The notes under the pieces were generated by a model. That model worked only from the letters and a program-made list of their open reading frames with translations, was not told the origin of the DNA and searched no databases. A program made the translations under genes and the position numbers. This document shows, in pieces, positions 1 through 63,345 of a stretch of DNA of 64,000 bases. Where the stretch lies: contig JAUSEN010000015.1 of NCBI GenBank assembly GCA_030650025.1, positions 13,728 through 77,727 of the forward strand, given 5' to 3'. Each line of letters starts with the position of its first letter. The first letter of the stretch is position 1. The DNA comes from Candidatus Magasanikiibacteriota bacterium. GTDB taxonomy: Bacteria > Patescibacteriota > Patescibacteriia > Magasanikbacterales > GWA2-37-8.

Positions 1-4
1 AGCG

Positions 5-1141: not shown

Positions 1142-1183
1142 AAATTCAACTTAAATAATAAAACAAACTTAGTTAGTAATAAT

Positions 1184-1669
1184 TTATTTGTAGTAAGATT
1201 TAATTTGAAAGAGGAAATAAAGCGAAATGAGCCCGCTTAGCACGGCGCTAATAAGATTACCTCCGATGAGATTACTTACTAGTTGCAATAAGACAGCGTA
1301 AAAAATCAGCCGCCAAGCTTTTAGGCTTCTTTTAAATAAACCGGGGATAGCCACTGCTTCGAGGGCGATAGTCGCGGCCGCGACCACTAAGCCTAAGTAG
1401 TACCAGCTTCCCGTATAGGCCATACCGCCGAATGAATACATAAAACTCCCTAAGCCCAAGAATATCAAGATAACCGGGAGCGCAATAATAATGCCGAGCA
1501 CCGAAAGCCACGGCGCGATTTTAACGAGCAACTCCTTAATATTAGCCGGCAGACTAAACGGAGCCTTAGTTACTAAATATTGTTCCAAGATGCCCTCGAG
1601 CGATTTTACTCCCGAACCAGATAGTGGGGGAGTGGGGGCGCTTGGCGGGGTGTTGGCTACTGGATCCAT
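1184..1669 (-). CDS. hypothetical integral membrane protein
   Basis: Pro/Ser-rich N-terminus followed by about 4 hydrophobic helices; 161 aa. Confidence 0.5.
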   Translation of the reverse strand: MDPVANTPPSAPTPPLSGSGVKSLEGILEQYLVTKAPFSLPANIKELLVKIAPWLSVLGIIIALPVILIFLGLGSFMYSFGGMAYTGSWYYLGLVVAAATIALEAVAIPGLFKRSLKAWRLIFYAVLLQLVSNLIGGNLISAVLSGLISLYFLFQIKSYYK

Positions 1670-1783
1670 ATGATTTTCTTAATGAATTAATAACTTAATT
1701 ATAATAAATTACCACTAAGAGTGCAAGTGGTATTTTATAAAAGAAGGCTTTGTTTAGATCGCGAAGCGTTAGGCCAAGAATTG

Positions 1784-1856
1784 TGGGACGGCTGGGGTTC
1801 GAACCCAGGACCTTATCCTTAAAAGGGATCTGCTCTACCAGCTGAGCTACCGTCCC
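1784..1856 (-). tRNA. tRNA-Lys (anticodon UUU)
   Basis: Cloverleaf read on minus strand: acceptor GGGACGG/CCGTCCC, D-arm GCTCAGCTGGTAGAGC, anticodon loop CUUUUAA, T-arm CTGGG-TTCGAAC-CCCAG; CCA not encoded. Confidence 0.9.
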
Positions 1857-2597: not shown

Positions 2598-3914
2598 ATG
2601 TTGACCAAACTCAAGCGCCTTGGGCATTGGTTTATTGCCATTGGCGCCTATTGGTTTTATGGCCGCCCTTCGCGCCACCTGGTTGTTATTGGCGTGACTG
2701 GCACTAAAGGCAAGTCTTCCACCTGTAGTTTTATTGCCTCGGTTTTAAAAGCCGGCGGTTTTAAAGTCGGCCTGCTTTCCACCATTGAAATTGAGATCAA
2801 TAATGAAATAATACGAAATAAAAATCAGATGACCATGCTGGGCCGCGGCCAGATTCAAAAATATTTGGCGCGGATGCTTAAGGCCGGTTGCCAATATGCT
2901 GTGATCGAAACTTCGTCCGAGGGCATATTACAGCATCGGCATCTTGGCCTTAATTATGACATCGTTGTGTTTACGAACCTTGGCTCCGAGCATCACGAGC
3001 GCCACGGTGGTTTCCTTAATTTGAAGCGTGACAAGGGCAAAATTTTTGCTGGCCTCGAGCGCTCATTCCCAAAAATTCTGGGCGGTCGCCGGGTTAAAAA
3101 GACCATTATTGCCAATGTGGATAGCTCGGACGCGGAATATTTTCTTAAGTTTTCCGCCGCTGTTAAGCTTGGTTTTTCCATAAAAAATGCCAACCCCGGA
3201 GCCAGCGCCCTGTGTTCTCAAGTATTTACTGCCAAAAATATTAGTAGCCACGACGCGGGCGCTGACTTCGAAGTTTTTGGGAACCGCTATCATCTCGAAA
3301 TGCTTGGCGAATTTAATATTTATAACGCTCTCCCGGCCATTGCGATTGGCGACGCGATAGGGCTCGCTCCTGAACAAATTAAATTGGGGTTAAACAGCGT
3401 CAAACAAATTCTCGGACGCTTACAATTTATTAACGTTGGCCAGCCATTTTCTTTTGTGGTTGATTATGCTCACGAAGTCATAAGTTTAACCGCGCTGTTT
3501 AACGCTCTGCGCCCGCTGGTTAAGCCGCCCGGGAAGCTCATCGGCATAATCGGTTCTGATGGCGGTGGCCGTGATAAATCCAAACGTTTTAACATGGGCG
3601 CTGTCGCGGGAGAGCTTTGTGATTATGTTATCATCACAGATGTCAACCCCTGGGACGAAGATTCAGAGGAAATTGCTCAGATGTTAGCGGCCGGAGTGAG
3701 AAGTTCTGGCCAGGTGGATAATAAAAATTTGCATATAATTATTGATCGGCGTGCGGCAATCAAGGAGTCTTTTAATTTGGCTGGAGTCGGTGGCGTAGTC
3801 GCGCTCACCGCTAAAGGCACTGAAACCGCGATTATTGGTAAAAACGGCCAGCGCCTGGCTTGGGATGATGCTGGTATTGCCACTGAACTCCTGCGTCGTT
3901 TTTTAAACAATTAA
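2598..3914 (+). CDS. Mur ligase family protein (MurE/MurT/CapB-like ATP-dependent amide ligase)
   Basis: P-loop GVTGTKGKSST after an N-terminal hydrophobic segment; central and C-terminal Mur-ligase-like regions; start moved to ATG 2598 to remove overlap with upstream gene. Confidence 0.7.
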   Translation: MLTKLKRLGHWFIAIGAYWFYGRPSRHLVVIGVTGTKGKSSTCSFIASVLKAGGFKVGLLSTIEIEINNEIIRNKNQMTMLGRGQIQKYLARMLKAGCQYAVIETSSEGILQHRHLGLNYDIVVFTNLGSEHHERHGGFLNLKRDKGKIFAGLERSFPKILGGRRVKKTIIANVDSSDAEYFLKFSAAVKLGFSIKNANPGASALCSQVFTAKNISSHDAGADFEVFGNRYHLEMLGEFNIYNALPAIAIGDAIGLAPEQIKLGLNSVKQILGRLQFINVGQPFSFVVDYAHEVISLTALFNALRPLVKPPGKLIGIIGSDGGGRDKSKRFNMGAVAGELCDYVIITDVNPWDEDSEEIAQMLAAGVRSSGQVDNKNLHIIIDRRAAIKESFNLAGVGGVVALTAKGTETAIIGKNGQRLAWDDAGIATELLRRFLNN

Positions 3915-4381: not shown

Positions 4382-5374
4382 ATGGATAATCACGTCGTTA
4401 AATCGAATTTAAAAATATTTTTAACTGGTTTTCTTGGCTTTATTGCCGTGGCCGCAGTTTTAGCCGTTGGTTATTTGGCGTTTAGCGCCTACCGTGCCGC
4501 CCCTACTACTGGCGCCGCCGCCTCTGTGGCCAGTTTTCTCAATTTACCGGCTCTAAGCGTCAATGGCCAGTCTGTTTCTTATCGTGATTACATCTCTGAT
4601 ATGAAGGCCATCAGAATGTTTCAAGCCTTTAGCCAAAGCTCCGGCAGCCCCCTTCCGAGTTACACCGATGAGCAATTATCCGACCAAGTTATTAGCCGTT
4701 TAGCGGGCAATGTGGTTATTGAGCAAACCGCGGCTCGGCTCGTGGCTAGTGTCGCCCCCGAGGAAGTAGCCGCTTTAAAAGCCCAGCTTTTGGAAGAATA
4801 CAAAACAGTTGACGCTGTTAACGCCGAACTTATTAAGCGCTATGGTTGGGATTTAAAAACCTACGAACGCAAAGTAATGAATTCTTATCTTTTACAGCAA
4901 AGCGTAGCCGAAAAAATTTCGACTGACCCGGCCGCGCGCTCTAGCTTACTCTCTCAAGCCGAGTCAGTTTTAAAACAAATTAAAGATGGTGCTGATTTTG
5001 CGCTTTTGGCTAAGCAGTATGGCACGGATGCCACTAAAGATCAGGGTGGGGACTTAGGCTGGTTTAAAACCGGGGATATGGTGCCCCAATTCGAAACGGC
5101 GGCCTTTGCCTTGAAACTTAACCAAGTAACCGACCAACCCGTGGAATCGTCTTACGGCTTCCATTTAATAAAATTAACTGGCCGCAAGACTACCACGAGC
5201 AAAGGCGCGGACGGCAAATTAGTCGCGGCCGAAGAGATTCGCGCTAGCCACATCCTGTTTCCGTTTCCGACTTTAGAAAAATATTTAGCCAACGCTCTGA
5301 AGGACGCTAAAATTAAACTTTACATCAAGGTTCACAATCCATTTTTGAGTGTCGCCACTTCCACCCCAGTCTAG
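4382..5374 (+). CDS. membrane-anchored parvulin-type peptidyl-prolyl cis-trans isomerase (SurA/PrsA-like)
   Basis: N-terminal TM helix; PpiC rotamase domain with GGDLGWF and SSYGFHLIKL motifs. Confidence 0.75.
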   Translation: MDNHVVKSNLKIFLTGFLGFIAVAAVLAVGYLAFSAYRAAPTTGAAASVASFLNLPALSVNGQSVSYRDYISDMKAIRMFQAFSQSSGSPLPSYTDEQLSDQVISRLAGNVVIEQTAARLVASVAPEEVAALKAQLLEEYKTVDAVNAELIKRYGWDLKTYERKVMNSYLLQQSVAEKISTDPAARSSLLSQAESVLKQIKDGADFALLAKQYGTDATKDQGGDLGWFKTGDMVPQFETAAFALKLNQVTDQPVESSYGFHLIKLTGRKTTTSKGADGKLVAAEEIRASHILFPFPTLEKYLANALKDAKIKLYIKVHNPFLSVATSTPV

Positions 5375-5382
5375 GGGTGTTT

Positions 5383-5453
5383 GCGGGATTAGTACAGTGG
5401 TAGTATGCTTGCTTCCCAAGCAAGAGAGGCGAGTTCGATTCTCGTATCCCGCT
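5383..5453 (+). tRNA. tRNA-Gly (anticodon CCC)
   Basis: Acceptor GCGGGAT/ATCCCGC, anticodon stem CTTGC/GCAAG with loop TTCCCAA, T-arm GCGAG-TTCGATT-CTCGT. Confidence 0.9.
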
Positions 5454-5454
5454 C

Positions 5455-6054
5455 ATGAAAAATACTAAACCGCTAAAACTTCTTTCCTTTGCGCCGCTCC
5501 CCACCAAGTTCGGCGCTTTTCAAATATACGTCTTTTTAAGTAAAGATAAATTAGAACACGTGGCGTTGGTTCATGGGAAACCTCGTCAAGAGCCGGCAGT
5601 GGTGCGTGTGCATTCGCAGTGCTTAACCGGCGACACTTTTCAGTCGCGTCGGTGTGACTGTGGTTCGCAGTTAACCACCAGTTTAAAAATATTGGGCCAA
5701 TCAAAATACGGCGTCTTATTATATTTAAATCAAGAAGGGCGGGGGATCGGTCTTGCCAATAAAATCAAAACTTACAATTTGCAAGATCAAGGTTTCGACA
5801 CCGCGGACGCTAATATCAAACTTGGTTTTCCGGCCGATGCGCGCCGCTACGATATTGCCGCCGCCATGCTTAACTACCTAAAAATAAATAAAATTCTTCT
5901 CCTCACCAATAATCCGGACAAAGAATGTCAGCTTTTTTCTGCGGGCATTAAGATAGCCGGCACTTTGCCTCTCGAAATAAAACCAAACCGCGTAAACAAA
6001 AAATATCTCCAAACTAAAAAACATCGTTTTGGCCACAAACTTCGTTTGGTTTAG
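5455..6054 (+). CDS. ribA: GTP cyclohydrolase II
   Basis: RVHSQCLTGD and RRCDCGSQL zinc/GTP-binding signature of RibA; 199 aa. Confidence 0.85.
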   Translation: MKNTKPLKLLSFAPLPTKFGAFQIYVFLSKDKLEHVALVHGKPRQEPAVVRVHSQCLTGDTFQSRRCDCGSQLTTSLKILGQSKYGVLLYLNQEGRGIGLANKIKTYNLQDQGFDTADANIKLGFPADARRYDIAAAMLNYLKINKILLLTNNPDKECQLFSAGIKIAGTLPLEIKPNRVNKKYLQTKKHRFGHKLRLV

Positions 6055-25183: not shown

Positions 25184-26632
25184 ATGATCAAAAACATCAT
25201 TTTCGACTGGTCTGGAGTCGTCAATAATAACTTCGCACAATCATGTGAAGCGGTTAATTATGTGTTGCGGCATTTTAACGTCCCTGCCATGACTCTCGAG
25301 GAAATCAAGGCCGACTGGATTCAGCCTTATATGCTGTTTTATTCGGCTCGCATTCCGCATTTAGATATCGAAAAAGAAAAAGAATTATTTTATCTTTCTT
25401 ACAACGAAGCTATTAAAACCACTCCCAATACGGCTTTTGCGGGCATGCCCGAGATGTTAAAACTTTTTCAAGCCGCCGGACTAAATATGATAATTATTTC
25501 GAGCGACCATCCGGGGACGCTGGCGGACGATCTCGACAAATTTGGCCTCAACGGGGTTTTTAACGAAGTATTTGCCGATGTTCATGATAAGCGCGTCGGG
25601 CTCCAAGATATAATGACCAAACACAATTTTAAAAATTCTGAAACTGTTTTTATCGGCGACTCGACGCACGAAGTTGAATCCGGCCAAAGCGCCAACATGT
25701 TAACTTGCGCCGTCACCTGGGGGTTCCAAAATAAAGATAAACTACTCGCCGCGCGCCCGGATTTTTTAGCTGAATCAGTCGCGGAATTAAAAAATATTAT
25801 TCTTCACCGCCACGCCCCGGCCACCAATGTTTTGGGTGTTCGCGTCAGCTTGCTCGATCAAACCACTGCTTTGCGGATAGCCAGCAATTATTTAAAATCT
25901 AACTACCAGTATCATATTTTTACCCCGAACCCTGAAATGCTCGTCAAAGCCGCCTCTGATCATTATTTTCGTGACATTCTCAACACCGGCAACCTGAATT
26001 TATGCGATGGCTTCGGCTTGTGGCTGGCGCTCAAGCTATCCTCGTTCAAATTGTCATTTCGACCGGAGTCCGGACAAAGTCCGGACGGAGTGGAGAAATC
26101 TAGTGCGCGTATCACCGGCGTCGATTTCATGTTCGACTTATGCGCTCTCGCCGCGCGCGAGAATAAAAAAATATTTTTACTTGGCTCTGGTAATAGGGAA
26201 GTGGCTAGTAAAACAAAAGACGCTCTGCAATCAAAATTCCCTAAACTTAATATTATTGGTGTTCATCCTTGGCTGACTATCACAGAAGATGTGGTAACTG
26301 GCAAATTGATCTTAAACGAACTCGAAAATACGCGCCTTCTTGAAGAAATCAAATCCGCCAGCCCGGACATTTTATTTGTCGCCTTTGGCATGGGCAAGCA
26401 AGAAAAATGGATTCACGAATATGCCACGCAAATACCAAGCCTTAAAATTGCCATGGGTGTGGGCGGGGCGTTTGATTATATCTCTGGCAAAATTCCCCGC
26501 GCGCCTAGACTAATGCGCAAAGTTGGGCTAGAATGGCTGTATCGTTTAATCCGCGAACCTCGCCGGGCAGGACGGATTTTTAACGCAACTATTAAATTTT
26601 TATACTATGTTGGAAAGGGATCCGGTAAATGA
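25184..26632 (+). CDS. fusion protein: HAD-superfamily hydrolase domain + WecG/TagA/CpsF (GT26) glycosyltransferase domain
   Basis: N-terminus IIFDWSGVV (HAD motif I with DxS), ...FIGDS motif; C-terminal GT26 region (VLGVRVSLLDQTTALRIA, NLCDGFGLWLALKL, IFLLGSGN, MGKQEKWI); contains a 20-aa insert encoded by palindromic element D. Confidence 0.7.
   Translation: MIKNIIFDWSGVVNNNFAQSCEAVNYVLRHFNVPAMTLEEIKADWIQPYMLFYSARIPHLDIEKEKELFYLSYNEAIKTTPNTAFAGMPEMLKLFQAAGLNMIIISSDHPGTLADDLDKFGLNGVFNEVFADVHDKRVGLQDIMTKHNFKNSETVFIGDSTHEVESGQSANMLTCAVTWGFQNKDKLLAARPDFLAESVAELKNIILHRHAPATNVLGVRVSLLDQTTALRIASNYLKSNYQYHIFTPNPEMLVKAASDHYFRDILNTGNLNLCDGFGLWLALKLSSFKLSFRPESGQSPDGVEKSSARITGVDFMFDLCALAARENKKIFLLGSGNREVASKTKDALQSKFPKLNIIGVHPWLTITEDVVTGKLILNELENTRLLEEIKSASPDILFVAFGMGKQEKWIHEYATQIPSLKIAMGVGGAFDYISGKIPRAPRLMRKVGLEWLYRLIREPRRAGRIFNATIKFLYYVGKGSGK
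26048..26103. repeat. palindromic element D (short member of TTGTCATT-terminated family) inserted in-frame in GT26 domain
   Basis: AAATTGTCATTTCGACC + GGAGTCCGGACAAAGTCCGGAC palindromes + GAGAAATCT; shares left terminus and AATCT motif with element A at 49268. Confidence 0.45.
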
Positions 26633-27173
26633 ACAACCAAAAAGACTCATTGTTGAAGTTGGGTCAGGAGGTGTCTCGGCGTTGAGTTTAGGAACACGGG
26701 GTAAAAAAGATGACGAAGTATTTGTTAGTCTTGATTTAGATCCAAATCAGGTTAGAGATGAAAAAGATGCCCATGTAATTGTAGCTGATGGGACAAACTT
26801 ACCGTTTGCCGATAAGTGTGTCGATGAATTAATTTATACTAATGTTTTTGGAGACCACCATCTTCAAAAGCCGGAGAAAATGTTAACAGAGGCGCAACGC
26901 GTGCTTAAACCAGAAGGATTTGTTTTTATTACTGAAACTTATACCCCGAAAAAAATGGCTCAAACACTCGGGGTCTCTTTACGGAGATCTGAATTGGAAA
27001 AACAAGGTCATATGAAATGGGAGTTAATAAAAGTAGACGATAGCGGTTTATTAGATTCTTCCGGATTCATTATTGATAGTTGGTCAGGCGCCCCAGACGA
27101 CGTGGCTCAATTTGAAAGATATTTCGGTAAACCATGGGGCGGTATTGCGATAAAACTAAAGAAAAAAAGTTAA
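26607..27173 (+). CDS. class I SAM-dependent methyltransferase (compositionally atypical)
   Basis: Motif I VEVGSGG, acidic loop, VADGTNLPFADKCVDELI (motif II/III region); lower GC and frequent AGA/GGA codons unlike neighbours; overlaps upstream gene by 26 nt. Confidence 0.6.
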   Translation: MLERDPVNEQPKRLIVEVGSGGVSALSLGTRGKKDDEVFVSLDLDPNQVRDEKDAHVIVADGTNLPFADKCVDELIYTNVFGDHHLQKPEKMLTEAQRVLKPEGFVFITETYTPKKMAQTLGVSLRRSELEKQGHMKWELIKVDDSGLLDSSGFIIDSWSGAPDDVAQFERYFGKPWGGIAIKLKKKS

Positions 27174-27660: not shown

Positions 27661-27681
27661 ATGATCCGTACCCGTTTTGCT
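27661..27681 (+). repeat. direct repeat copy 2 (authentic gltX 5' end ATGATCCGTACCCGTTTTGCT)
   Basis: See copy 1. Confidence 0.6.
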
Positions 27682-29151
27682 CCGAGCCCGACTGGTTGGT
27701 TGCATGTGGGAGGCCTCCGTACCGCCCTCTATGCTTATTTAATTGCCAAAAAACAGGGCGGGCAGTTTTTGGTGCGTATCGAGGACACAGACCGCGAACG
27801 ATTTGTAGAAACCGGCACGCTCAATATTTTAAAATCTCTCTCTTGGGCAGGGGTAGTTCCGGACGAAGGCGTAGTGCTTGATGCTGGCGGAAAAATCACT
27901 CAAAAAGGCGATTTAGGGCCGTATATACAGTCCGAACGTCTAGCCATATACAAAAAATACGCCGCCGAGCTCCTCGATAAAAAATCGGCTTATTATTGTT
28001 TTTGTACGAGCGAACGACTCGAAGAATTACGTAAGCAGCAAGAATTAAATAAATTGCCTGGCGGCTATGATGGCGAATGCTTAAAAAATTCTACTCCAGA
28101 AGACGCCAAGAAAAGGGTGGCGGCGGGTGAGAAGCATGTAGTGCGTCTCAAGATGCCTAAAGACGGAGAAACAGTGTGGCATGATTTAGTTCGCGGCGAA
28201 GTCAGTTTTAAGAATGCTCTAGTGGACGACCAAGTTTTAATTAAATCCGATGGTTTCCCCACGTATCACTTGGCGGTGGTTGTTGATGATCATGAGATGC
28301 GAATTACCCACGTTATTCGCGGTGAAGAATGGGTTTCGAGCACGCCCAAGCATATTCAGCTGTATAAATATTTTGGTTGGGAAATGCCGGAATTTGCCCA
28401 TTTGCCGCTTCTTCTTAACCCCGATAAATCCAAGTTAAGCAAGCGCCAGGGCGATGTCGCGGTGGAGGATTATAACAATAAAGGATACTTGCCCGAAGCC
28501 CTTATAAATTTCGTCGCCTTTTTAGGCTGGAACCCGGGTACGAATAAAGAAATATACTCACTATCAGAGTTAGTACAGGATTTTAGTTTAGAAAAAGTTA
28601 GTAAATCCGGGGCGGTGTTTAATCTGGAGAAATTAAATTGGTTTAATAAAGAGTATTTAAAAAATTATTCTGGAGAAAAATTAGCTGAATTAGTTCCAGA
28701 ATTTTTTGTTAACAACGATTTTTATCATGATTTTACAGAAAAGTTAGCTGATAAAAATTTTTTTGGCAAAATTCTTGATCTTGAAAAAGAACGAGTTACG
28801 ACGCTCGCGGAATTGCCCGCAGCCGTCAAGTTTATTTTTAAAATTCCGGAATATTTGCCAGAAATTTTAGTGTGGCGTAAAGGCACTCTGGACGAAGTAA
28901 AAATAATTTTACCAGAATTAAAAAATTACTTAGAGAATTTTGAAGTCGGGGAGTGGAATGAAAAAAATTTAGAAGCAAAAATAAAAATTTGGCTTGAATC
29001 CAAAAAATACTCTACCGGATCGGTTTTGTGGCCTCTGCGCGTAGCGCTTAGTGGCCAGCAGAACAGTCCCGGGCCATTTGAGATTGCCGCGGTATTAGGC
29101 AAGGCAGAATCACTGGCGCGTCTAGATTTAGCTATCAGAAAACTGAAATAA
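27661..29151 (+). CDS. gltX: glutamyl-tRNA synthetase
   Basis: Class I HIGH region RFAPSPTGWLHVGG, KMSKS equivalent KLSKRQG, anticodon-binding C-terminal domain. Confidence 0.92.
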   Translation: MIRTRFAPSPTGWLHVGGLRTALYAYLIAKKQGGQFLVRIEDTDRERFVETGTLNILKSLSWAGVVPDEGVVLDAGGKITQKGDLGPYIQSERLAIYKKYAAELLDKKSAYYCFCTSERLEELRKQQELNKLPGGYDGECLKNSTPEDAKKRVAAGEKHVVRLKMPKDGETVWHDLVRGEVSFKNALVDDQVLIKSDGFPTYHLAVVVDDHEMRITHVIRGEEWVSSTPKHIQLYKYFGWEMPEFAHLPLLLNPDKSKLSKRQGDVAVEDYNNKGYLPEALINFVAFLGWNPGTNKEIYSLSELVQDFSLEKVSKSGAVFNLEKLNWFNKEYLKNYSGEKLAELVPEFFVNNDFYHDFTEKLADKNFFGKILDLEKERVTTLAELPAAVKFIFKIPEYLPEILVWRKGTLDEVKIILPELKNYLENFEVGEWNEKNLEAKIKIWLESKKYSTGSVLWPLRVALSGQQNSPGPFEIAAVLGKAESLARLDLAIRKLK

Positions 29152-47359: not shown

Positions 47360-50300
47360 TCACAAATATCCCGCCAATCGCAACGCGCGCAAACAAACTG
47401 GCTCGGCGTGGCCGTAAAATCACCCGTCATAATCTGGCTAATAGTCCCGGCTAATTTGGCTTTTAATTTCTCTAAATCTTTTGACTCGCCAATAAACGAC
47501 TGCTTAATTTCGTCATTTAAATAATAAAATGTTAATTTGCTCGGCTTACCAATATTTTTAAATTCAGAAATTTCGCCGACCGCAATTTGGTAGAGCAAAA
47601 GTTGTTCTTTGTCATCGCTCGTTAATTTGTCCTTGCTCTGGCCGGTTTTGTAATCAATAATTTCAATAGTGCCATCCGGCAGCTGGTCCAGCCGGTCGAT
47701 ACGACCATTCATCACATACTCCCCCACTTTAATTTTGAACCAGCTTTCAAGACCAATTGGGATGTTCCAATTGCCTTCCTCTGCACTATAAAAAACTTTA
47801 AGAATATCTTTGCCTTTTTTATACATATCTTCACGTTGGCGCTTGTTTTGGTACCAATCACTAATCCATTTGGCATCGTAGATTTTGAGAAGTTCGGCAA
47901 ATTCTGGGGCCTTAATAAGGCCATCTTTTTTGGCCACCGCTCGAGGCGGGGTATCAAATAAAGACACTTGTGAAGCGCTATTAAGCTCTTTTATTCGCTC
48001 ATAAAACGCCTGAAGAGTACTGTGCAGGCTAAGGCCAAAACTAAAACTGGCACTTCCCTTCATGGGAATACGGAGGATATGCGCGAGTTTATATTGATAC
48101 GGGCAGGTTTCGTAAGAGCGGAGCTGTGAGAAAGAAAAAGTTTTTGGCATTTCGTATTCGCCCGGCGCGGCCGGTTTAGCGCGTTCGGTTTTTTTAGGCA
48201 GTTCTATTTTTTTCTTGGCTTTATTTTCTGGCGCCACCAAACCAATCTCATCTAAAAAACGGCTGATTTTTTTAGCCCGAACGCCGCCGTAGTCAAAAGC
48301 ACTCGTAAAATAAAGGCGTTCTTTGGCGCGGGTCATGGCAACATAAAATAAACGTCGTTCTTCTTGCAGATGGCTGTCGCCCTCGGGGAGCTGTTCTTTT
48401 ACCAGGGGGTCGGGAATTTGCAAAGCTTCCGAGCGGCTCCGGGCCGGGAAACGGTCCTCGACTAGGTTTACCACAAATACATAGCGCCATTCTAGGCCTT
48501 TAGCCGCGTGCACCGTTAAAATATTAATCGACTCCGGTGTGTCGCTCGGCTGGTACAGACTACCTTTGTCGCCGGCTGCGACCACCATTAAAAAGTGCTC
48601 GATAAAATTATTAACGTGCGCGTCGGGCGTTATTGCCTCGTACTCCGCAATATAGTCAAAAAATTGTTTTAAATAGCGAATTTGGCGAATAACAGCGCCC
48701 ACCCCTTTGTTTTCTTGGTGCGTTAAGTATGTGAGATAGCCGCTATTTTCTAGGAAGTTATAGAGCACCACCGAAGGCTTGTCCGCGCGCGTAGCCTGAA
48801 GACCGGCGTGGATAATATCGATAAGTTTATTGCCAACCGCAACACCCGCTGGCGAAACGCCAAATTCGGCCGCGCGCTTAAGCGCCTCGTAGTAGGAAAT
48901 ACTTTTACGTTTTGCGCCACTAGTGATTTTTTGTAAATCATTTTCTTTAAATTCCAAAAATGGCAGGCAAAGCAGGCGGTATATGGCGCTCGACTCGTGG
49001 AAATTACTAAGCACTTTAAAAAAATTGACGCAATCAAGAATAATCGCCTGGCGATACAAGCCCGACGACGCCAAAAACTCGTAGGGAATGCCGCGGCTTT
49101 CAAAACCGTTAATAAACGCGTCCGCGTGGCTATTGGCGCGCACCAGAATCGCAAAATCGTCCCAGGTTATGTCTTCATTGGCATCTTTCAAACGCACGAT
49201 TTCTGTGAGCACGGCCGTGACTTCTTCTTCGGCAGTGGCTTTGTGTATGTGTGTTACCGTTCCCAAATTGTCATTCCGACCCGCCCTGGGCGGGGAGGAA
49301 TCTCTGTCCGTTCGCGGTCGCGAACGAGATTTCTCCCCGCCCGCCTGACTTGCATCAGCGTGTCGGGCAGGCTTCGTCGTCGAAATGACAGTTTTTTTAG
49401 CTATCAGTTTTTTATCGATTTTAAGTTTAACCTCCAGGCGGTCCGGGTTATTATTTTGAATGGACTTGTATGCAACATCAAGAATAGCTTGACCCGAGCG
49501 AAAGTTTTCCGAGAGCACCACTTCTTTAGCGTCTTGGTAATCGTCTTTAAAGCGCAGAATATTACTGACGCTGGCGCCGCGGAACGCGTAAATACTCTGG
49601 TCATCGTCCCCGACTACGGTGAGCTGCGATTTTTCGTCAGCCAGAAGCTTGATCAGCTCGTATTGCGCGTAGTTCACATCCTGGAACTCATCAACCAAAA
49701 TATATTTATACTTATTTTGGAATAGTTTTAAAATATTTGGCCGTTCGCGAAAAAGTTTAACCGTGTAAGAAAGCAAATCGCCAAAATCCATAAGCGCGCT
49801 ATCTCGGAGGAGCTGATTGTAAGTGTGGTACGCTAGAGCGAGCTCGGTCAGGCGATTCTTTTCTTCCCCGCCCAGGGCGCCGTTCTGATCTTTTTTGGTT
49901 CCCTCGGCATATTCCAGATATTCCTCGGGCGTAATCAGTTCGTCTTTGCACTTAGAGAAGTGCTTTAAAAATTCATGGATGTGTTTAGTAGGGTTACCGA
50001 GCGGGCGGTAATAATTTAAGTTAAATTTATCGAGGTTCTTCTGGATTAATATCCAACCGGCTGTGTCGGTTAAAAGCTTAAACGAATTGCTCAAACCAAT
50101 ATCAATGGCGTGATGCTCAAGAATTTTTTGGCAAAACGCGTGAAAAGTGGAGATGTGCAAATCCGCGTAGCCAACATTCGTAATTTCGTCCACCCGGGTC
50201 TGCATTTCCTCGGCGGCTTGGTCGGTAAATGTTAGAGCCAAAACTTCTTCGGGCTTGGCCAATTTCTCTTCAAGCAAACGGCAAATTTTGCTGGTGATAA

Positions 50301-52396: not shown

Positions 52397-52831
52397 TTAT
52401 TTAGAAGAAGATATTTTTCGATATTTATTGCCAACCCGTAATCTCGACAACGCTTTTTCCATACTGGCTTGCAAAGTTACGTATTCCACGTCGTCTTTAA
52501 AACGGGCTGAAGACATTAAACTGGCGGCTTTCGCTCTCGCCTCTTCCGCGCGCGCCAAATCAATCTCGGTGGCGTGTTCAGCCGTATCCGCTAAAATAAC
52601 CACTTCACTTTTCGGTTTCACTTCAATAAACCCAGTGGAAACCGCGATCAGCTTCTCCTCTCCATTTTTAACATAGCGCAACTCACCAGGCTGCATTAAG
52701 CTCACCAGCGGAATATGATGAGGCAAAATTGTGATTTCGCCGGTTTTAGTCATAACTGTAATCTGGGAGACTTCATCGCTAAAAACCACGCGCTCGGGAG
52801 TAATAATTTTAAATTTGATTAAATCAGCCAT
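52397..52831 (-). CDS. atpC: F1 ATP synthase epsilon subunit
   Basis: N-terminal beta-sandwich KFKIITPERVVF...GEITILPHHIPL, C-terminal helices; last gene of atp operon. Confidence 0.85.
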   Translation of the reverse strand: MADLIKFKIITPERVVFSDEVSQITVMTKTGEITILPHHIPLVSLMQPGELRYVKNGEEKLIAVSTGFIEVKPKSEVVILADTAEHATEIDLARAEEARAKAASLMSSARFKDDVEYVTLQASMEKALSRLRVGNKYRKISSSK

Positions 52832-52840
52832 AAAAACAAA

Positions 52841-53089
52841 TTATTGATATTTAACCGTCTCATCAAAATCTATTATGTGTTCTCCGGTCTCCAAATCAAA
52901 ACTTAACCTGCAGTGCCACTGCTGGTTCCTTTCATCAAATTTATTTCCAATATAAACACAAGTTTTTCCAGCATCCTGCATTTCATCTTTTAGATAAGTA
53001 AAACCTCGTTCAGATAAAATAGATTTTGCTTTTATTCTGCAACTTTCTCTATTAAGTTCTCTCGTTTTCTCAATAGTTAATTCCGACAT
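52841..53089 (-). CDS. hypothetical small protein, AT-rich, inserted between atpD and atpC
   Basis: 82-aa ORF with markedly lower GC and AGA/ATA-rich codon usage than flanking atp genes; three Cys and several His; no recognised domain. Confidence 0.45.
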   Translation of the reverse strand: MSELTIEKTRELNRESCRIKAKSILSERGFTYLKDEMQDAGKTCVYIGNKFDERNQQWHCRLSFDLETGEHIIDFDETVKYQ

Positions 53090-53095
53090 AAAAAA

Positions 53096-55398
<2,303 letters not shown>

Positions 55399-55404
55399 AT
55401 AAAA

Positions 55405-58140
55405 TTAAGCCCGCGCCTGGCGCCGAGACAATAATCTGCTAATTAATACTTTGGCAATTTCCAAAACAATTACTACCGTCAATGCCACCGGTAAAATAAT
55501 AAAATAATCATTAAGCGCTAAGGAAAAAGTGTTAAAAGGTTTGTGGAGAATTGGCCAATACACCACCGCCCCAAGTAAAAGCAACTCCCACAAGACGGCG
55601 CGATTGAGCCACTTATTACTAAAGAAATTACGGAACATTGTAATTGATTCCGAACGAAACGCGTACGCTTTAATAAATTCAACCAACACCAAATTGACAA
55701 ATATTATTGTCATGACCTCACTCTCTGGCCTACCTTGGCCAAGCAAAAATATAAATAAAGCGATATTGATTACCATGGACCAAACGCCCCCGGTTAACAT
55801 TAAAGCCACAACCGGCTTCGTAAAAATGCCGGTTTTAAGATTGCGGGGCTTTTCGGACATCAAATTCTTGCGCGGCGGGTCTACGGCCAAAGCCAAAGCC
55901 GGGAGCCCATCGGTCGCGAGGTTAACATACAAAATCTGCACCGCCGTGAGCGGCAACGGGAGGCCTATTACCGTCGCGCCGACCATGATGCCAATTTCAC
56001 CGATATTGCTAGACAAAAGATAAGTTAAATATTTTTTAATGTTTCCAAAAATAATTCTCCCTTCTTCAATCGCGGCCACGATGGAAGCAAAATTGTCATC
56101 AAGGAGAAGCATATCCGCGGCTTCTTTAGCCACGTCCGTGCCGGTAATACCCATGGCAATGCCAATGTCGGCTTTTTTAAGAGCCGGAGCGTCATTAACG
56201 CCATCTCCTGTCATCGCGACCACGTGCCCGCGCGCTTGCAGGGCCGTTACCACGCGTAATTTATGCTCGGGAGAAACGCGCGCGCAAACATCGACCGACT
56301 CAATTTTATTCTCCAATTCTAACGCTGACATTTTTTCTAGTTCCGGGCCTGTTACTACTACGCCCGTCGCATTAATTAAACCCAGTTCGCGCGCAATGGC
56401 TTCGGCTGTAATGGGGTGGTCGCCGGTAATCATCATCACTTTGATTCCGGCGGCGCGACTGGTGGCAATAGCCTCGGCCGCTTCTAAGCGCGGCGGGTCA
56501 ATCATGGCCGCTAGTCCCAAAAACACCAATTCACTAGGCTTAGTGCCAAGCGCCCCGCTCTCTTTGGAAGCTATCGCGATTACCCGGAGCGCTAATTTGG
56601 AAAAATCTTCGACTTGGTTTTGTATCATACGCCGGTAGTCGTCTGTTAAGGGCGAGAAACCGCTGCCAGTCGCGATCTGGGTGCAAAAACCGAGCACGAT
56701 CTCGGCCGCGCCTTTAGCATACTGAATCTCGTAGTCAGAAGTTTTGTGAGCCGTGGCCATAAACTTATCTTCGCTACTAAAAGGAATTTCTGCGACTCGC
56801 GAGTATTCGCTGTCCAGCTCGGTTTTAATCAAACCGGCCTTAGCCGCCGCGACTACCAAGGCCCCTTCAGTGGGGTCGCCTTTAATATCCCACTGTTTGG
56901 CTTCATTCTCAATTAAATGCGCGTCCGAGCAAAGCGCGCCGGCCTTCAAAAACTCCAAAAAGCCGCCCTCGACCAAAACCGGTTTATCGCTAGCCAAAAA
57001 ATCACCCTCTGGTTCATACCCCGCGCCAGTTACATCAATAATCGGTCGCCCCGGCAAATAGATCTTGCGCACCGTCATTTCATCTTTTGTGAGAGTGCCG
57101 GTTTTATCCGTGCAAATTACGGTGGTCGCGCCGAGAGTCTCTACGGCCGGCAACCGCCGAACCAAGGCGTTTCTCTTAACCATTCTTTGTACGCCAATAG
57201 ACAAGGAAATTGTCACCACGGCCGGCAGCGCCTCTGGTACCACGGCCACGGCTAAAGCCACGCCAAACAATAATATTTCCACGAGTGGCGAGCCCCGAAA
57301 CAGACCAACCCCAACAATCACCGCTACGATTACAAACGCCGCCTGCGCCAAGCGCTTACCTACCACTGCCAAATTCTTTTGCAAAGGCGTGACCATGGAA
57401 ACGACCTCCTGAAGCATTCCGGCGATCTTACCAATTTCTGTATTCATTCCCGTCGCGACCACGACCGCGAGGCCTCGGCCATAACTGATATTAGTAGAGG
57501 CAAATACCATATTTTTGCGATCGCCCAAGGCCGCGTCTCTCGCCGCGATTGCTTCGGAGTGCTTTTCCACGGGTACAGATTCACCTGTCAAAGACGCTTC
57601 CTCGGCCTTCATATTAACCGACTCGATAATTCTGGCATCCGCCGCGATTCTATCGCCAGCCCCTAAAACTAAAATATCGCCGGGCACAATCTCTTCGGCC
57701 AAAATTTCGACCTCTTGCCCGCCGCGTAAAATGGTGGCGATTGGCGCCGCCATTTTTTTCAAAGCTTCCATGGCCTTTTCCGCCCGAAATTCTTGAACAA
57801 AACCCAAAATAACGGCAAACAAAACAATTACGCCAATCGCAATAGCTTCTACCGCGTGGCCAAGAAACCCGGACAACGCCACGCCCAAAAGCAAAATAAT
57901 AACTAAAATATTTTTAAACTGGCCTAAAAATACAGCGAAGGGAGAGATGCTTTTAGTCACAGCTAACCGGTTCAACCCAAATTGCGCCAGGCTGTGCTGG
58001 GCTTGTTCCACAGTTAATCCGCGGGTGCTCTCTGACCCGAGACTTTTTAGCACTGCCTCGCTGGTTTTAGAGTGCCATGGCTCTTGGCTAGAATCTGTCA
58101 TGATAAAAACTCTGTTAAATGGATTTTTTAAATTGCTCAA
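55405..58140 (-). CDS. P-type cation-transporting ATPase (type IIA/IIB Ca2+/Mg2+-like) embedded in atp operon
   Basis: Phosphorylation motif [13 protein letters not shown]-like actuator (TGESVPVEK), [30 protein letters not shown], 10 TM helices; an alternative ATG at 58101 would remove the 26-nt overlap with atpA. Confidence 0.9.
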
Positions 58141-59644
58141 TCGCGTCTTGCAAATCTTTGGCCACTGACTCGTCCCAAATACCAGAAGCGATTTTAGTTA
58201 ACAGCCCGCTCTGGCTCTGGTTTAAATAAGCCTGCAATTTATCCTCCCAATCTCTGATATTTTTTACGTCCACGTTATTAGCCAAACCATTCGTAATCGC
58301 GTAAATAATCGCCACTTGGTTAGCTACTGGCATCGGCTGATACTGCGGTTGTTTTAGAACTTCTACCAAACGCTGGCCCAAATCAATTTGTTTCTTGGTC
58401 TCCGGGTCAAGATCACTAGAAAATTGGGCGAAAGCTTCGAGCTCACGAAATTGCGCTAACTGTAATTTGATTTTTCCGGCCACTTTTTTCATGGGTTTAA
58501 TTTGGGCGTTAGAGCCGACCCGCGAAACCGAAATGCCCACGTTCACCGCCGGGCGAATACCGCGGTAAAATAAATCTGCTTCCAAAAATATCTGCCCATC
58601 GGTAATGGAAATTACGTTAGTTGGAATATAAGCCGTTACGTCTCCAGCTTGCGTCTCAATAATGGGCAGAGCCGTAATTGAGCCTCCCCCGGCTTCTTTA
58701 TTCCGCCGGCAGGCGCGCTCTAATAATCGTGAGTGTAGGTAAAAAACGTCTCCCGGGTAAGCTTCGCGGCCCGGCGGACGACGGAGCAAGAGCGACACTT
58801 CGCGGTAAGCCCAAGCCTGCTTGCTTAAATCATCATAAATCACCAGGACATCTTTGCCCTGGTCCATAAAATATTCAGCGATAGAAACACCGGCGTAAGG
58901 CGCGATAAACAAGAGCGCGGCCGAGTCCGAAGCGCCTGCGGAAACTACGACTGTGTAGTCCATCGCTCCGGCTTCTTTTAATTTAGCAACCAAACGGGCA
59001 ACTTTGGATTCTTTTTGGCCAATCGCTACATACACGCAAATCATATTCTGATCCTTCTGATTGATGATAGTGTCGATGGCGAGAGACGTTTTACCAGTTT
59101 GCCTGTCGCCAATAATAAGCTCGCGCTGGCCGCGCCCGATTGGAATCATAGCATCGATTGCTTTGATTCCGGTTTGCACCGGCTCCGAGACTGGCTCGCG
59201 AGTCATAACCCCGGGAGCGATTCTTTCAATCGGGTAAAACTTCTTAGTGGTAAAAGCGCGGCCGCCATCAATTGGGCTACCGAGCGGGTTCACTACCCGG
59301 CCAATCAATTCTTCGCCGACCGGCACGGACAGAATGCGACCGGTGCGCTTGGCAGTATCGCCCTCTTTAATATGTTTAAATTCGCCCAAAATTACCACCC
59401 CCACGGTTTCTTCTTCTAAATTTAAGGCTACTCCGTAAGTGACCTGACTGGCCCCGTCATTCGACGGGGTTTTCATTTCACTCAAAAATTCAATCATCTC
59501 GTTAGCTTGGCATTTAGTTAAGCCACTCAATCGAGCGATGCCATCCCCAATCTCTTCCACTTTCCCGATTTCGGCGACGGCTACTTGCTGTTCAAAATCA
59601 GCAATGTGTTTTTTTAACTCGGCAATAATCGAATTAGTAGACAT
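58115..59644 (-). CDS. atpA: F1 ATP synthase alpha subunit
   Basis: P-loop [18 protein letters not shown]. Confidence 0.95.
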
Positions 59645-59650
59645 ATTGAT

Positions 59651-60040
59651 TTAATTTACAAGCTTAATTTTTAAATTTTTTAACTGCGTTTTTACGGTCG
59701 CGTCAAAAATCAAATCCCCGCTCGCCACCAAAAATCCTCCGAGTATCTCGGCGTTCACCAAAACTTTAGATTCAATTTTCTTGCCAAAAGCTTTGGTAAT
59801 ATTATGGAGCGCTTTCTCATCAAGCTCCCGAGCCGTGGTCACTGTAACCTCTTTAATTCCGGCTTGAGCCTTGCTGATGCGTTCAAACTGCTCCAAAATT
59901 TGCGGCGCTTTCTTTAGCAATCTTTTATTTGCCAAATAACCCACAAATTTTTTGGCGATGCCGGAGACCGCGCTCGCGGGCGCGGTGCTGATCACTTCAT
60001 AAAACGCCTGGGCTAATTTTTGTGGGCTATTAACGGCCAT
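59651..60040 (-). CDS. atpH: ATP synthase delta (OSCP) subunit, short form
   Basis: 129 aa; C-terminal GGFLVASGDLIFDATVKTQLKNL matches the OSCP C-terminal signature; N-terminal helical bundle shortened. Confidence 0.65.
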   Translation of the reverse strand: MAVNSPQKLAQAFYEVISTAPASAVSGIAKKFVGYLANKRLLKKAPQILEQFERISKAQAGIKEVTVTTARELDEKALHNITKAFGKKIESKVLVNAEILGGFLVASGDLIFDATVKTQLKNLKIKLVN

Positions 60041-60042
60041 AA

Positions 60043-60606
60043 TTATTTGTTAACGTCAATCTTTTTAGCTAAATCACTAATCAAAACTTTGTCTTTTTCG
60101 CTGGTTAATTTTTCTTTAATAATTTTTTCGGTTATCATCGTAACTAATTCAACCGTCTGCAATTTTAATTCGGCCATCATACTGCTTCGCTCTTCAGCTA
60201 GGCCGCGCTTGGCCTGAAGAGCAAGAGCTTCAATTTCTGCTTTGGCTTTGGCGCGCACTTGGTTGGCTGCCACCACTGCTTCTCCGGTTGATTTTTCGAT
60301 AATTTTTGAGGCTTCGGCTTTGGCCTCATCAATTTTAGCTTGATATTTCTGTTCGCTGTGTCGCAAATTTTCGTCTATCTTCTTGGCATTCTCTAAACTG
60401 TCATCAATCAAATTCTGCCGTTCTGTCATTTTTTTAGTGAGCGGTTTCAAAATCAGCCACCAAATCACGGCCGCTATTATGGCAAAGTTAATAAATTGAG
60501 AAATAAGCATGCCCCCGTTAATTCCGAGGTCCCCGAGCACCCCACCAGAGGATTCGGCCGCCCCCGCCCCAATTTCGGACGCGTAGGCAATATCAATAAA
60601 GTTCAT
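60043..60606 (-). CDS. atpF: ATP synthase Fo subunit b
   Basis: N-terminal TM helix then long charged coiled-coil; operon position. Confidence 0.7.
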   Translation of the reverse strand: MNFIDIAYASEIGAGAAESSGGVLGDLGINGGMLISQFINFAIIAAVIWWLILKPLTKKMTERQNLIDDSLENAKKIDENLRHSEQKYQAKIDEAKAEASKIIEKSTGEAVVAANQVRAKAKAEIEALALQAKRGLAEERSSMMAELKLQTVELVTMITEKIIKEKLTSEKDKVLISDLAKKIDVNK

Positions 60607-60677: not shown

Positions 60678-60980
<303 letters not shown>

Positions 60981-61041: not shown

Positions 61042-61824
61042 CTAATGCTCGGCACCGTGCGGTTCACTGCTCGCGATCGTCATATAAACAATAGTTAACA
61101 TCGCGAACACACTGGCCTGAATAATGCCCACCAGTAATTCTAAAAGCATGAATGGCGTTGGCACTAAAACTGAAACTAAACTAAGCATCACCATCATCAA
61201 GACTTCACCCGCGAAAATATTGCCAAATAAACGTAGCGACAGCGATAAAACCTTGGCTAATTCACTGACAATCTCGAGTAACCCCACCGCGAATTCCACC
61301 AAAGCCGTCAAAACAGCAACCGGCCCCTTTTTTAAGCTCTTGATTACCGAACCGATTTGCACAAACTTATTAAGATGAGTAAAAATTCCCACACTTAAAA
61401 AACCAAACACATGCGAAGAGACCACGGCCACGAGCGCCATAGCTACTGTTAAGTTTAGATCCGTATTGGCCGGCCGAAGAATCGGTTCCCCCTGCCAAGT
61501 CAGGCTACCCGTACCAGGAATTAAACCCAGCCAGTTCGAAAATAATATAAAGAAAAATACCGACCCTACTATTGGCAAAAATTTAAGAGTGGTTTGCCGG
61601 CTTTGAGTGACTTGGTCAAAATATCCAAGCAAAATTTCTAAAAAATATTCGCACCAATTTTGCAATCTACCAGGGCGGAGAGCGGCTTTTTTAGAGATGA
61701 AGTACCCCAAAATTAAAAACCCTACCAGAGCCAGCCAAGTATTAATCATGGTATTAGAAACCGCCACGGGCCCAACGTGGAAGAGAGTTTCGGCGGCTAG
61801 TGGTGGAATGTGAGGCGCGGCCAT
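61042..61824 (-). CDS. atpB: ATP synthase Fo subunit a
   Basis: Signature LSLRLFGNIFAGEVLM with essential Arg. Confidence 0.85.
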   Translation of the reverse strand: MAAPHIPPLAAETLFHVGPVAVSNTMINTWLALVGFLILGYFISKKAALRPGRLQNWCEYFLEILLGYFDQVTQSRQTTLKFLPIVGSVFFFILFSNWLGLIPGTGSLTWQGEPILRPANTDLNLTVAMALVAVVSSHVFGFLSVGIFTHLNKFVQIGSVIKSLKKGPVAVLTALVEFAVGLLEIVSELAKVLSLSLRLFGNIFAGEVLMMVMLSLVSVLVPTPFMLLELLVGIIQASVFAMLTIVYMTIASSEPHGAEH

Positions 61825-61842: not shown

Positions 61843-62139
61843 TTATTTTTTGCCAGCACTTTTACTATCAGACATTTTTTGATATTCCTGCCCGTATATT
61901 TTAGCCTTGCGATAAATTAATTTAGCCGAAAGTATCGCCGCCAGCACAAAGCCTATGATCAAATACCGTGGCTCGGTACCCTGCCGATTATCCAACCACT
62001 GCCCCAAAAGCGCCAATATTACAATCGGGACTGCAATCGAAGCGCCAAAGTCCCCTACAATCCGAAGCGCGAACATATAATACGCTCTGTCCCCTCCTGT
62101 TCGCGGCGGCAAGGAATTTTTTTGGCTTAAATCAGGCAT
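61843..62139 (-). CDS. AtpZ/AtpI-like small membrane protein of atp operon
   Basis: 98 aa, two TM helices, position immediately upstream of atpB. Confidence 0.5.
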   Translation of the reverse strand: MPDLSQKNSLPPRTGGDRAYYMFALRIVGDFGASIAVPIVILALLGQWLDNRQGTEPRYLIIGFVLAAILSAKLIYRKAKIYGQEYQKMSDSKSAGKK

Positions 62140-62213: not shown

Positions 62214-62414
62214 TTAATCAAATAATACGGCTTGGTATAAAGAAAAACCAGTAATTACTACCAACCCCAAAAACACCATTGTTGGTAGCCATCGCGAACG
62301 CTTCCTAAAACGATGCATTATATCGTCAATAAGCAAAAAAATAAAGAACCACAATCCGGCAAACTGGAAAAAAAATAATAAAAATATGCCCATTATTTCC
62401 AACAATCTAGTCAT
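62214..62414 (-). CDS. hypothetical small membrane protein
   Basis: 66 aa, two hydrophobic helices; overlaps tatD start by 8 nt. Confidence 0.35.
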   Translation of the reverse strand: MTRLLEIMGIFLLFFFQFAGLWFFIFLLIDDIMHRFRKRSRWLPTMVFLGLVVITGFSLYQAVLFD

Positions 62415-63345
62415 TTAACTTAATTTTATTGAATAAATATAGGGCATTTTGCGTAGTGGCCTTAACAACTTCATCATAAGAAACACCGCGAATCTCCGCA
62501 ATTTTTCTGGCGGTAAACTCTACCATCCACGGCTCGCCTCGCTTTCCGCGATGAGGCACGGGTGACAGATACGGGCAATCAGTCTCAAGCAAGATTCTCT
62601 CGAGCGGCATTTTCGCCACCACTTCTAGTAAATCTGCTTGCGCTTGTGGATTTTTTTTAAGCGGCGGAAAGGTGATCACGCCAGTAAAACCAATATAAAA
62701 CCCCATCGCTAAATACTTTTGCGCGTTTTCCCAATTGCTCGTATAGCAGTGAATCGTGCCGGTAAGCGGTGAGACCCCACCCTCGCCCTCCCCTTTGCGA
62801 AGGGGAGGGGAATCGTCGTCCCCCCTCCTTTGCAAAGGAGGGGGGAGGGGGAGGTCTCGCGTCGCATCTTGTAAAATTTCGATCAACTCCTCATGCGCCT
62901 CGCGGCAATGTATCACCATTGGTAAGTTTGTTTCTTTGGCAAGCCTAATATGCTCTAAAAAAACCTGCCTTTGCTTGGGTAGCATTTGCTCTTTACTTAG
63001 GCCCTCGGGAATTCGATAAAAATCCAAGCCGCATTCCCCTATCCCGATTACTTTCTCGCTCGCGCAAAGTTTTTTATAATATTCAAAATTAAATTCTTCT
63101 TCTCTTGATAAAAATGAAGTTTCTTCTTCATCCACAAACTTGCTAAACAAATGCTCGGGGTGGAGCCCAACGCTCGCAAAGACATTTTTAAAGCGCTCGG
63201 CCACTTCCACGGCCCTCTTACTAGTATCACTCTGGGTGCCGACCAAATTTATCACCACATTTTTGGATAAACTGCGTTTAATAACCTCGTCTGAATCAGC
63301 CTGATAGGCATTAAAATGCGCGTGGGCATGAGTGTCAAAAAGCAT
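62407..63345 (-). CDS. tatD: TatD-family metal-dependent hydrolase/DNase with in-frame low-complexity insert
   Basis: MLFDTHAHAHF N-terminus, GECGLDF, VIHCREAHE, IHCYTSNW, ETDCPYL motifs; about 30-aa Pro/Gly-rich insert encoded by element B. Confidence 0.85.
   Translation of the reverse strand: MLFDTHAHAHFNAYQADSDEVIKRSLSKNVVINLVGTQSDTSKRAVEVAERFKNVFASVGLHPEHLFSKFVDEEETSFLSREEEFNFEYYKKLCASEKVIGIGECGLDFYRIPEGLSKEQMLPKQRQVFLEHIRLAKETNLPMVIHCREAHEELIEILQDATRDLPLPPPLQRRGDDDSPPLRKGEGEGGVSPLTGTIHCYTSNWENAQKYLAMGFYIGFTGVITFPPLKKNPQAQADLLEVVAKMPLERILLETDCPYLSPVPHRGKRGEPWMVEFTARKIAEIRGVSYDEVVKATTQNALYLFNKIKLND
62771..62858. repeat. GC-rich nested-palindrome element B inserted in-frame in tatD
   Basis: Hairpins CCCTCCCCTT-tgcg-AAGGGGAGGG and CCCCCCTCCTTT-gc-AAAGGAGGGGGG flanked by GAGACC...GGTCTC; encodes DLPLPPPLQRRGDDDSPPLRKGEGEGGVSP. 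Confidence 0.45.

Follow-up and report, generated by a model that had tools for sequence, protein, structure and literature searches.

Several small proteins or domains are known as accessories of ATP synthase, including the epsilon C-terminal domain, the alphaproteobacterial zeta subunit, cyanobacterial AtpTheta and mitochondrial IF1, all four of which are regulators, as well as AtpI/AtpZ. Taxonomically restricted ORFans are short, AT-rich and lineage-specific and are thought to be derived from phage or mobile DNA. Small size, acidity, a high AT content and taxonomic uniqueness are also typical of immunity and anti-defence proteins. A search of the literature on genes located between atpD and atpC, and on the atp operons of Patescibacteria, returned nothing relevant. 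The gene described here, ORF82, was found in a metagenome-assembled Candidatus Magasanikbacteria genome (NCBI tag Q7K39_02860), within a stretch of 64,000 nucleotides that is referred to below as the window. With moderate confidence, we propose that ORF82 is an expressed, lineage-specific orphan passenger gene that came with, or itself constitutes, an AT-rich insertion.

Position of ORF82 and the ancestral atpD–atpC junction

ORF82 starts with ATG, ends with TAA and fills the junction between the genes for F1 beta (atpD) and F1 epsilon (atpC). It lies on the same strand as both, 6 nt past the atpD stop codon and 9 nt ahead of the atpC ATG (Table 1). An 82-residue ORF wedged between these two genes was noted in a first-pass annotation of the window, and its coordinates and quoted sequence agree with those reported here. 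All three genes (52397..54466) share one reading frame, the insert being 3 × 86 nt in length; this common frame is probably fortuitous, being expected by chance in about 1 case in 9.

Elsewhere in the operon, the P-type cation ATPase gene located between atpA and atpG is full-length, with E1-E2_ATPase, Cation_ATPase_N and Cation_ATPase_C domains. The TTG listed as its start gives an overlap with the end of atpA, and the Logan gene call is 898 aa. The gene is found at the same position in locus L091 and not in L002–L015 or L094–L097. Two small ORFs resembling membrane proteins lie just upstream of atpB, at 61843..62139 (minus strand, 98 aa) and 62214..62414 (minus strand, 66 aa), and may be AtpI/AtpZ-like leader genes of the operon.

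Table 1. Features of the atp operon in the window and small ORFs at atp junctions of comparison loci; positions refer to the sequence named in the first column.
Sequence	Feature	Position	Strand	atpD identity	Remarks
Window	atpB	61042..61824	-		Operon member, first in order
Window	atpE	60678..60899	-		Operon member
Window	atpF	60043..60606	-		Operon member
Window	atpH	59651..60040	-		Operon member
Window	atpA	58115..59644	-		Operon member
Window	P-type cation ATPase	55405..58140	-		Between atpA and atpG
Window	atpG	54475..55398	-		Operon member, followed by atpD, ORF82 and atpC
Window	atpD (F1 beta)	53096..54466	-		Pfam; upstream neighbour of ORF82
Window	ORF82	52841..53089	-		82 aa, ATG start, TAA stop
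Window	atpC (F1 epsilon)	52397..52831	-		Pfam; downstream neighbour of ORF82, final operon gene
Window	Insert (ORF82 and 9-nt spacer TTTGTTTTT)	52832..53089	-		258 bp, AT-rich, missing in closest relatives
Window	Left junction, 6-nt spacer TTTTTT after atpD TAA	53090..53095	-		Identical to the atpD–atpC spacer of L090 and L091; here ahead of the ORF82 ATG
Window	Right junction, 9-nt spacer TTTGTTTTT from ORF82 TAA to atpC ATG	52832..52840	-		TAA–T-rich–ATG regenerated before atpC
Window	Imperfect direct repeat, left copy AATAATTT(---)TTTATGnCnGAnTTAA	53077..53103	-		Covers stop, spacer and ORF82 start
Window	Imperfect direct repeat, right copy	52819..52848	-		ORF82/atpC junction; start-to-start spacing 258 and 255 bp
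L096	Two 23S_rRNA_IVP ORFs	806..1198, 2630..2956		88.6%	108-aa protein between atpD and atpC; second between atpG and atpD
L093	23S_rRNA_IVP ORF	1..159			Directly upstream of atpC; contig ends before atpD, outside the gap survey
L042	PDDEXK_3 GxxExxY protein	5620..6048		68%	142 aa, E = 2.5e-24, between atpD and atpC
L083	Unrelated ORF	1457..1798		83%	∼110 aa
L004	Membrane ORF	5465..5788		74%	107 aa
L020	Unannotated ORF	5360..5811		73%	
L025	Unannotated ORF	5363..5904		73%	
L050	Unannotated ORF	4695..4913		73%	
L009	Three opposite-strand genes			73%	1.25-kb atpD–atpC gap; genes of 120, 122 and 128 aa

The closest relatives, which were found via epsilon homologues, allow the ancestral junction to be known to the base. 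In the syntenic loci L090, L091 and L092 (atpD ∼84–90% identical), atpD is followed by TAA, 6 nt and the ATG of atpC, with no ORF between; the spacer is TTTTTT in L090 and L091 and TTCTGT in L092. The junction is tight in L094 and L097 too, as it is in L002, the nearest GTDB representative (atpD 82%). It is at this position that the window holds 258 extra bases. The gene order in L091, a 41-kb Logan contig, is atpA, P-type ATPase, atpG, atpD, atpC, ABC transporter, UvrD and DciA, as in the window, with identities of 89.5% for atpD, 72% for atpC and 69% for atpG, and its junction reads ...GTT AAA TAA TTTTTT ATG GAA CTC... (GTTAAATAATTTTTTATGGAACTC). L091 has a 182-aa ORF between the ABC transporter and UvrD genes, which the window does not have.

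ORF82 is, as the first-pass annotation had supposed, an insertion at a conserved junction; it is specific to one lineage and is not a conserved subunit. Its absence from the closest relatives points to a recent passenger gene rather than a new ATP-synthase subunit. The annotation had further described the gene as stably maintained, a description that does not hold for a gene known from a single genome in two assemblies, the NCBI MAG record and the Logan assembly of run SRR13727527. The latter, possibly the source run of the MAG itself, is 100% identical to the window over 7.8 kb.

Coding potential, composition and predicted product

Judged from its sequence, ORF82 is probably a real, translatable gene. 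The frame in the operon sense is open for 81 codons, which has a probability of P = 0.0003 in dinucleotide-preserving shuffles, and in a codon model trained on the genes of the window it scores best of the six frames (−0.33, compared with −0.83 to −1.77). The start context is T-rich and lacks a Shine-Dalgarno motif, like those of the native genes, and the ATG comes right after the ancestral spacer. The order GC1 > GC2 > GC3 and the identity of the Logan assembly to the window also count in favor of a gene. The alternative is that the insert is junk or remnant DNA, such as the decayed stump of a larger gene, and that ORF82 is a non-functional open frame whose translation is a by-product. In its favor, 4.4% of the shuffles contain 82 or more codons without a stop in some frame, native small genes score +0.1 to +0.4 in the codon model, where ORF82 is negative, and no homologue was found from which purifying selection could be read. 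Against it stand the openness and top rank of the operon-sense frame, the placement of the ORF between the ancestral spacer and a stop 9 nt before atpC, its lack of likeness to the families that occupy the junction in related loci and the structure prediction described below. We therefore consider a non-functional open frame rather unlikely.

Across the whole window, gene starts follow T/A-rich runs (e.g. TAA TTTTT ATG) and lack Shine-Dalgarno motifs, with many neighboring genes only 2–10 nt apart, which suggests a mode of initiation or coupling independent of the Shine-Dalgarno sequence. No RNA element beyond chance was detected at ORF82, the folding z-score being −1.22 relative to shuffles. 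The sole Rfam match was to a snoRNA model, and its 26.5 bits lie below the gathering score of 70 (E = 0.31).

The predicted product is acidic (pI 5.35) and hydrophilic (GRAVY −0.87), with no predicted membrane segment. The best single-sequence AlphaFold2 model (pLDDT 77.9, pTM 0.58) is comprised of a helix (residues 4-28) followed by a four-stranded β-meander (strands 31-38, 43-51, 57-65, and 71-76). This model is far above that of a length-matched control, an 82-aa antisense ORF within atpC whose best model reached a pLDDT of 44.8 and a pTM of 0.25, although the contrast is between one confident model of five, the other four having a pLDDT of 40–56, and a single negative control; the four low-confidence models count in favor of a non-functional frame. 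The first-pass annotation had counted three cysteines together with histidines, and these were located at Cys17, Cys44, Cys60, His59, and His71. The zinc-ribbon-like fold that it had envisaged is not what the structure prediction gave: there are no CxxC or CxxH pairs and no paired cysteine knuckles, and in the predicted model the Cys and His residues are located in the helix and on different strands, so that a zinc ribbon or finger was rejected.

In composition, ORF82 stands apart from the rest of the window. Its GC content of 0.325 (GC1 0.398 > GC2 0.325 > GC3 0.253) is the lowest of any gene in the window, ∼4 S.D. below the mean of the 58 genes (mean GC 0.447, S.D. 0.031; mean GC3 0.457, S.D. 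0.051), and when the other genes were sampled in in-frame 83-codon windows, GC or GC3 was as low in only 0.5% of these, nearly all from two genes. The lower GC reported for ORF82 relative to the flanking atp genes was thus reproduced. The different codon preference reported alongside it was reproduced in part: the lean toward AGA, AAA and ATA is as described (AGA/AGG for 5 of 6 Arg, AAA for 7 of 7 Lys, ATA for 3 of 6 Ile), but a CAI-like index places the gene only at the 12th percentile, so that it is chiefly in base composition that the gene deviates. Moreover, the GC content of ORF82 falls inside the range of the AT-rich intergenic spacers of the genome itself (0.25–0.52). Consequently, low GC is no proof of foreign origin, and this overlap is also a point for the reading of the insert as non-functional DNA. 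The only other coding stretches as AT-rich as ORF82 are at 26607..27173 (GC3 0.296) and 27661..29151 (low-GC part 28463..28999), which may together form another compositionally atypical segment.

Relatives of ORF82 and the origin of the insert

No relative of ORF82 was detected in any of the collections searched. A word-indexed search of 5.8 billion clusters matched only ORF82 itself, and phmmer against 1.84 billion representatives (∼15 billion proteins) returned the self-match and one spurious protein, P0002, a repeat protein with C2H2 fingers (WHCRLCxKxAxxEHI). The E-value of the latter (1e-4) is inflated by four repeats matching 24 residues, and the alignment pairs WHCRLS of ORF82 with WHCRLC, placing Ser at the position of the second Cys of the motif. 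There was no match, at permissive thresholds, in Pfam (E up to 1), PHROGs, NCBIfam, or PADLOC (E up to 10), nor any in phage and plasmid collections searched as protein and as DNA, or in IMG/VR viral and JGI metagenome contigs, and the best match among PDB sequences had E = 1. Foldseek comparison of the predicted model with the PDB and BFVD gave no match below E = 0.03, the top matches covering a generic four-stranded β-meander, namely single blades of β-propellers. Two further candidates were rejected. A GerMN ("Germane") domain was suggested by a pairwise E-value of 0.001 against L096:6003-6446, but this rose to 2.8 when the 755-kb locus set was searched, and with no Pfam match the similarity was taken as chance; a PepSY-like fold was dismissed, YpmB ranking no higher than 40th (E = 0.41) and a PepSY protein 48th in BFVD. 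The first-pass annotation had recognized no domain in the protein, and the empty Pfam, NCBIfam, and PHROGs searches accord with this. It had also named ordinary composition, or homologues in atp operons across the phylum, as observations that would speak against its reading; the composition proved atypical, and no homologue was found in any atp operon or elsewhere among the sequences searched.

A partial tandem duplication, in which ORF82 would be a diverged copy of the 3′ end of atpD or the 5′ end of atpC together with the junction, would account for the insert from local sequence. An imperfect direct repeat of ∼27 nt, also given as AATAATTT(GTT)TTTATGnCnGAnTTAA, flanks the 258-bp unit and extends into the first codons (MSEL compared with MADL), and by eye the C terminus of ORF82 (...TVKYQ*) is faintly like that of atpD (...EVK*). 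However, an unrelated gene start at 30462 fits the atpC start better than that of ORF82 does (16/19 compared with 15/19 positions). The repeat thus reflects the common context of stop codon, T-run, ATG and AT-rich codons and is not evidence of duplication, and a target-site or tandem duplication read from it was rejected.

Similarity at the protein level was equally lacking. For atpC, BLASTP gave no match, and hhalign against the epsilon profile returned a probability of 0.6%, pairing residues 15–52 of ORF82 with the C-terminal helix of epsilon. For atpD, BLASTP gave E-values of 0.29–0.53, and alignment scores compared with shuffles gave P = 0.09 (local, whole atpD) and 0.39 (global, last 75 residues). 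The C-terminal 85 residues of atpD gave P = 0.016 (local) and 0.02 (semi-global), values that are not convincing as the segment was chosen post hoc. A copy of the atpD 3′ end that includes the DELSEED region, suggested by the likeness by eye of MSELTIEK, was rejected as the shuffle tests were not significant. DNA local alignments to the flanks were no better than those of codon shuffles (P = 0.87 and 0.34), and Pfam gave no match of ORF82 to ATP-synt_DE_N, ATP-synt_DE, or beta. Taken together, these sequence comparisons largely refute an origin by duplication, which we regard as very improbable.

Derivation from the gene families found at atp junctions in relatives was also considered. A degraded GxxExxY (PDDEXK_3) gene was suggested by apparent "RES...L...G" and "VY.G" motifs, but profile tests were negative: hhalign against a 30-sequence PDDEXK_3 profile returned a probability of 0.15%, and hmmsearch --max scored ORF82 at −1.4 bits, where the shuffle mean was −1.3 and 81% of shuffles scored at least as well. 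For 23S_rRNA_IVP (PF05635), there was no Pfam match at E up to 1 and no tblastn similarity to the ORFs of L096 and L093, and the four β-strands predicted for ORF82 are unlike the all-helical four-helix bundle of that family.

Hallmarks of a mobile element were likewise sought in the window: the ends of the insert carry no terminal inverted repeats, neither an integrase nor a transposase lies in the vicinity, and ORF82 is present in a single copy, with no paralogue or repeat copy in the 64 kb. Two GC-rich (0.62–0.65), hairpin-forming stretches of ∼120 bp were seen elsewhere, one at ∼49248..49368, in frame in a UvrD-like helicase gene (peptide ARHADASQAGGEKSRSRPRTDRDSSPPRAGRNDN), and the other at ∼62739..62859, in frame in TatD (peptide RDLPLPPPLQRRGDDDSPPLRKGEGEGGVSPL). 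Their sequences have the look of palindromic repeats that have entered coding sequence, and no similarity between the two was found by blastn-short.

The absence of such hallmarks also bears on the suggestion, made in the first-pass annotation, of a selfish cargo of the addiction or defence type. In this explanation, ORF82 would be an orphan immunity or antitoxin-like protein, or an anti-defence protein, which came from a phage or mobile element and was kept because it is protective. Its small size, acidity, AT-richness and taxonomic uniqueness fit such a protein, and a CdiI immunity protein and uncharacterized phage proteins are among the weak, non-significant fold matches. However, all fold matches have E ≥ 0.03 and are mostly generic β-meanders, neither PADLOC nor PHROGs gave a match, and no toxin or partner gene adjoins ORF82, whose neighbors are beta and epsilon. 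The suggestion thus found no backing, and we consider it distinctly unlikely.

The explanation that we favor is that of a passenger gene. A 258-bp AT-rich fragment, whose source would probably be mobile or phage DNA that has not been sampled, was inserted between the atpD–atpC spacer and the ATG of atpC. The ancestral TAA-TTTTTT-ATG was thereby kept before ORF82, and a similar TAA-TTTGTTTTT-ATG made before atpC. A scan of the insert found no tandem repeat and no terminator on the minus (coding) strand. With native-type junctions on both sides and no terminator, it appears likely that epsilon expression is preserved and that ORF82 is co-transcribed and translated. The sequence context indicates that ORF82 is most likely part of the atp polycistronic mRNA and is translated like its neighbors, to yield a small acidic cytoplasmic protein with a predicted α+β fold. 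The passenger would ride on expression of the operon; it is not taken to be a component of ATP synthase, and its function is most likely unrelated to ATP synthesis.

Small ORFs at atp junctions and likeness to known systems

In Patescibacteria, unrelated small ORFs are tolerated between atpD and atpC and also at other junctions of the atp genes. Among 88 comparison loci with both atpD and atpC, the median gap between the two genes is ∼22 bp, and eight have a gap of 200 bp or more, not counting L001, a ninth, which is the sequence of the window itself. These eight all belong to the loci with ATP-synthase genes most like those of the window, and they are mostly of Patescibacteria type. The contents of the gaps are unrelated to one another (Table 1), and none of the junction inserts of other loci is like ORF82. 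Pfam gave no significant match for the spacer ORFs of L004, L020, L025, and L050. The ORF of L095, at 182..481, is another of the unannotated small ORFs found in atpD–atpC or atpA–atpG spacers.

With the window counted, three loci whose atpD genes are at least 83% identical to that of the window hold three different inserts at this one junction, which indicates that a tolerant site has received insertions repeatedly and independently. That the inserts are unrelated argues against a site-specific function, and the position of ORF82 consequently carries little information on what the protein does.

Position is, however, the sole evidence for the "novel accessory factor" of ATP synthase put forward in the first-pass annotation. 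A newly recruited modulator of F1Fo, such as an inhibitor directed at beta, gamma or epsilon, would have its level tied to that of beta and epsilon by position, and ORF82 does lie within the operon, with junctions like the coupled atpD–atpC junction. Against this, ORF82 is absent from L090, L091, L092, L094, L097, and L002, although the operons of the closest relatives are otherwise identical; it has no detected homologues and no similarity to epsilon or beta; and elsewhere the same junction holds plainly unrelated genes, including those for a nuclease and a 23S_rRNA_IVP protein. A role as modulator is therefore very unlikely. We give hardly any credence to the specific case in which one Patescibacteria lineage has lately captured a small protein that binds to F1 (beta, gamma or epsilon) and adjusts ATP-synthase activity. 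Were it so, a regulator of a core enzyme would have been caught at birth, and atp junctions in reduced genomes would be entry points for trying out new accessory proteins.

Orphan small genes are common in metagenome-assembled Patescibacteria genomes, and ORF82 alone matters little. The locus is of interest as a clean case of before and after, in which a foreign-looking gene has entered an essential operon at a translationally coupled junction, and the junction has been regenerated on both sides. The recurrence of unrelated small ORFs at atpD–atpC in several related lineages is a pattern that can be surveyed, and it suggests that, in these reduced genomes, the junctions of strongly expressed operons are sites at which incoming small genes are readily accommodated.

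Of the known systems, the small regulators of ATP synthase resemble ORF82 in being small and genetically linked to ATP-synthase genes; ORF82 differs in having no similarity to epsilon or beta and in not being conserved in close relatives. The ORFs of the 23S rRNA IVS type (23S_rRNA_IVP and PDDEXK_3 GxxExxY) are closer in setting. Like ORF82, they are found at atpD–atpC or other atp junctions (L096, L093, and L042), and each is a lone small ORF on the same strand, with mobility genes not evident. However, both families are very widespread, whereas ORF82 is present in one genome and has no sequence similarity to either, and 23S_rRNA_IVP forms a four-helix bundle, whereas ORF82 is predicted to contain a β-sheet. 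ORFans differ from ORF82 in that it sits at a junction of a tightly coupled core bioenergetic operon and not in a genomic island, with no donor identifiable. In other respects the likeness is close, ORF82 being short, much more AT-rich than the host genome and restricted to one lineage, with no homologues. Collectively, these comparisons lead us to regard ORF82 as the one member of a new protein family whose kind is familiar, namely an ORFan that is short, AT-rich and restricted to a lineage.
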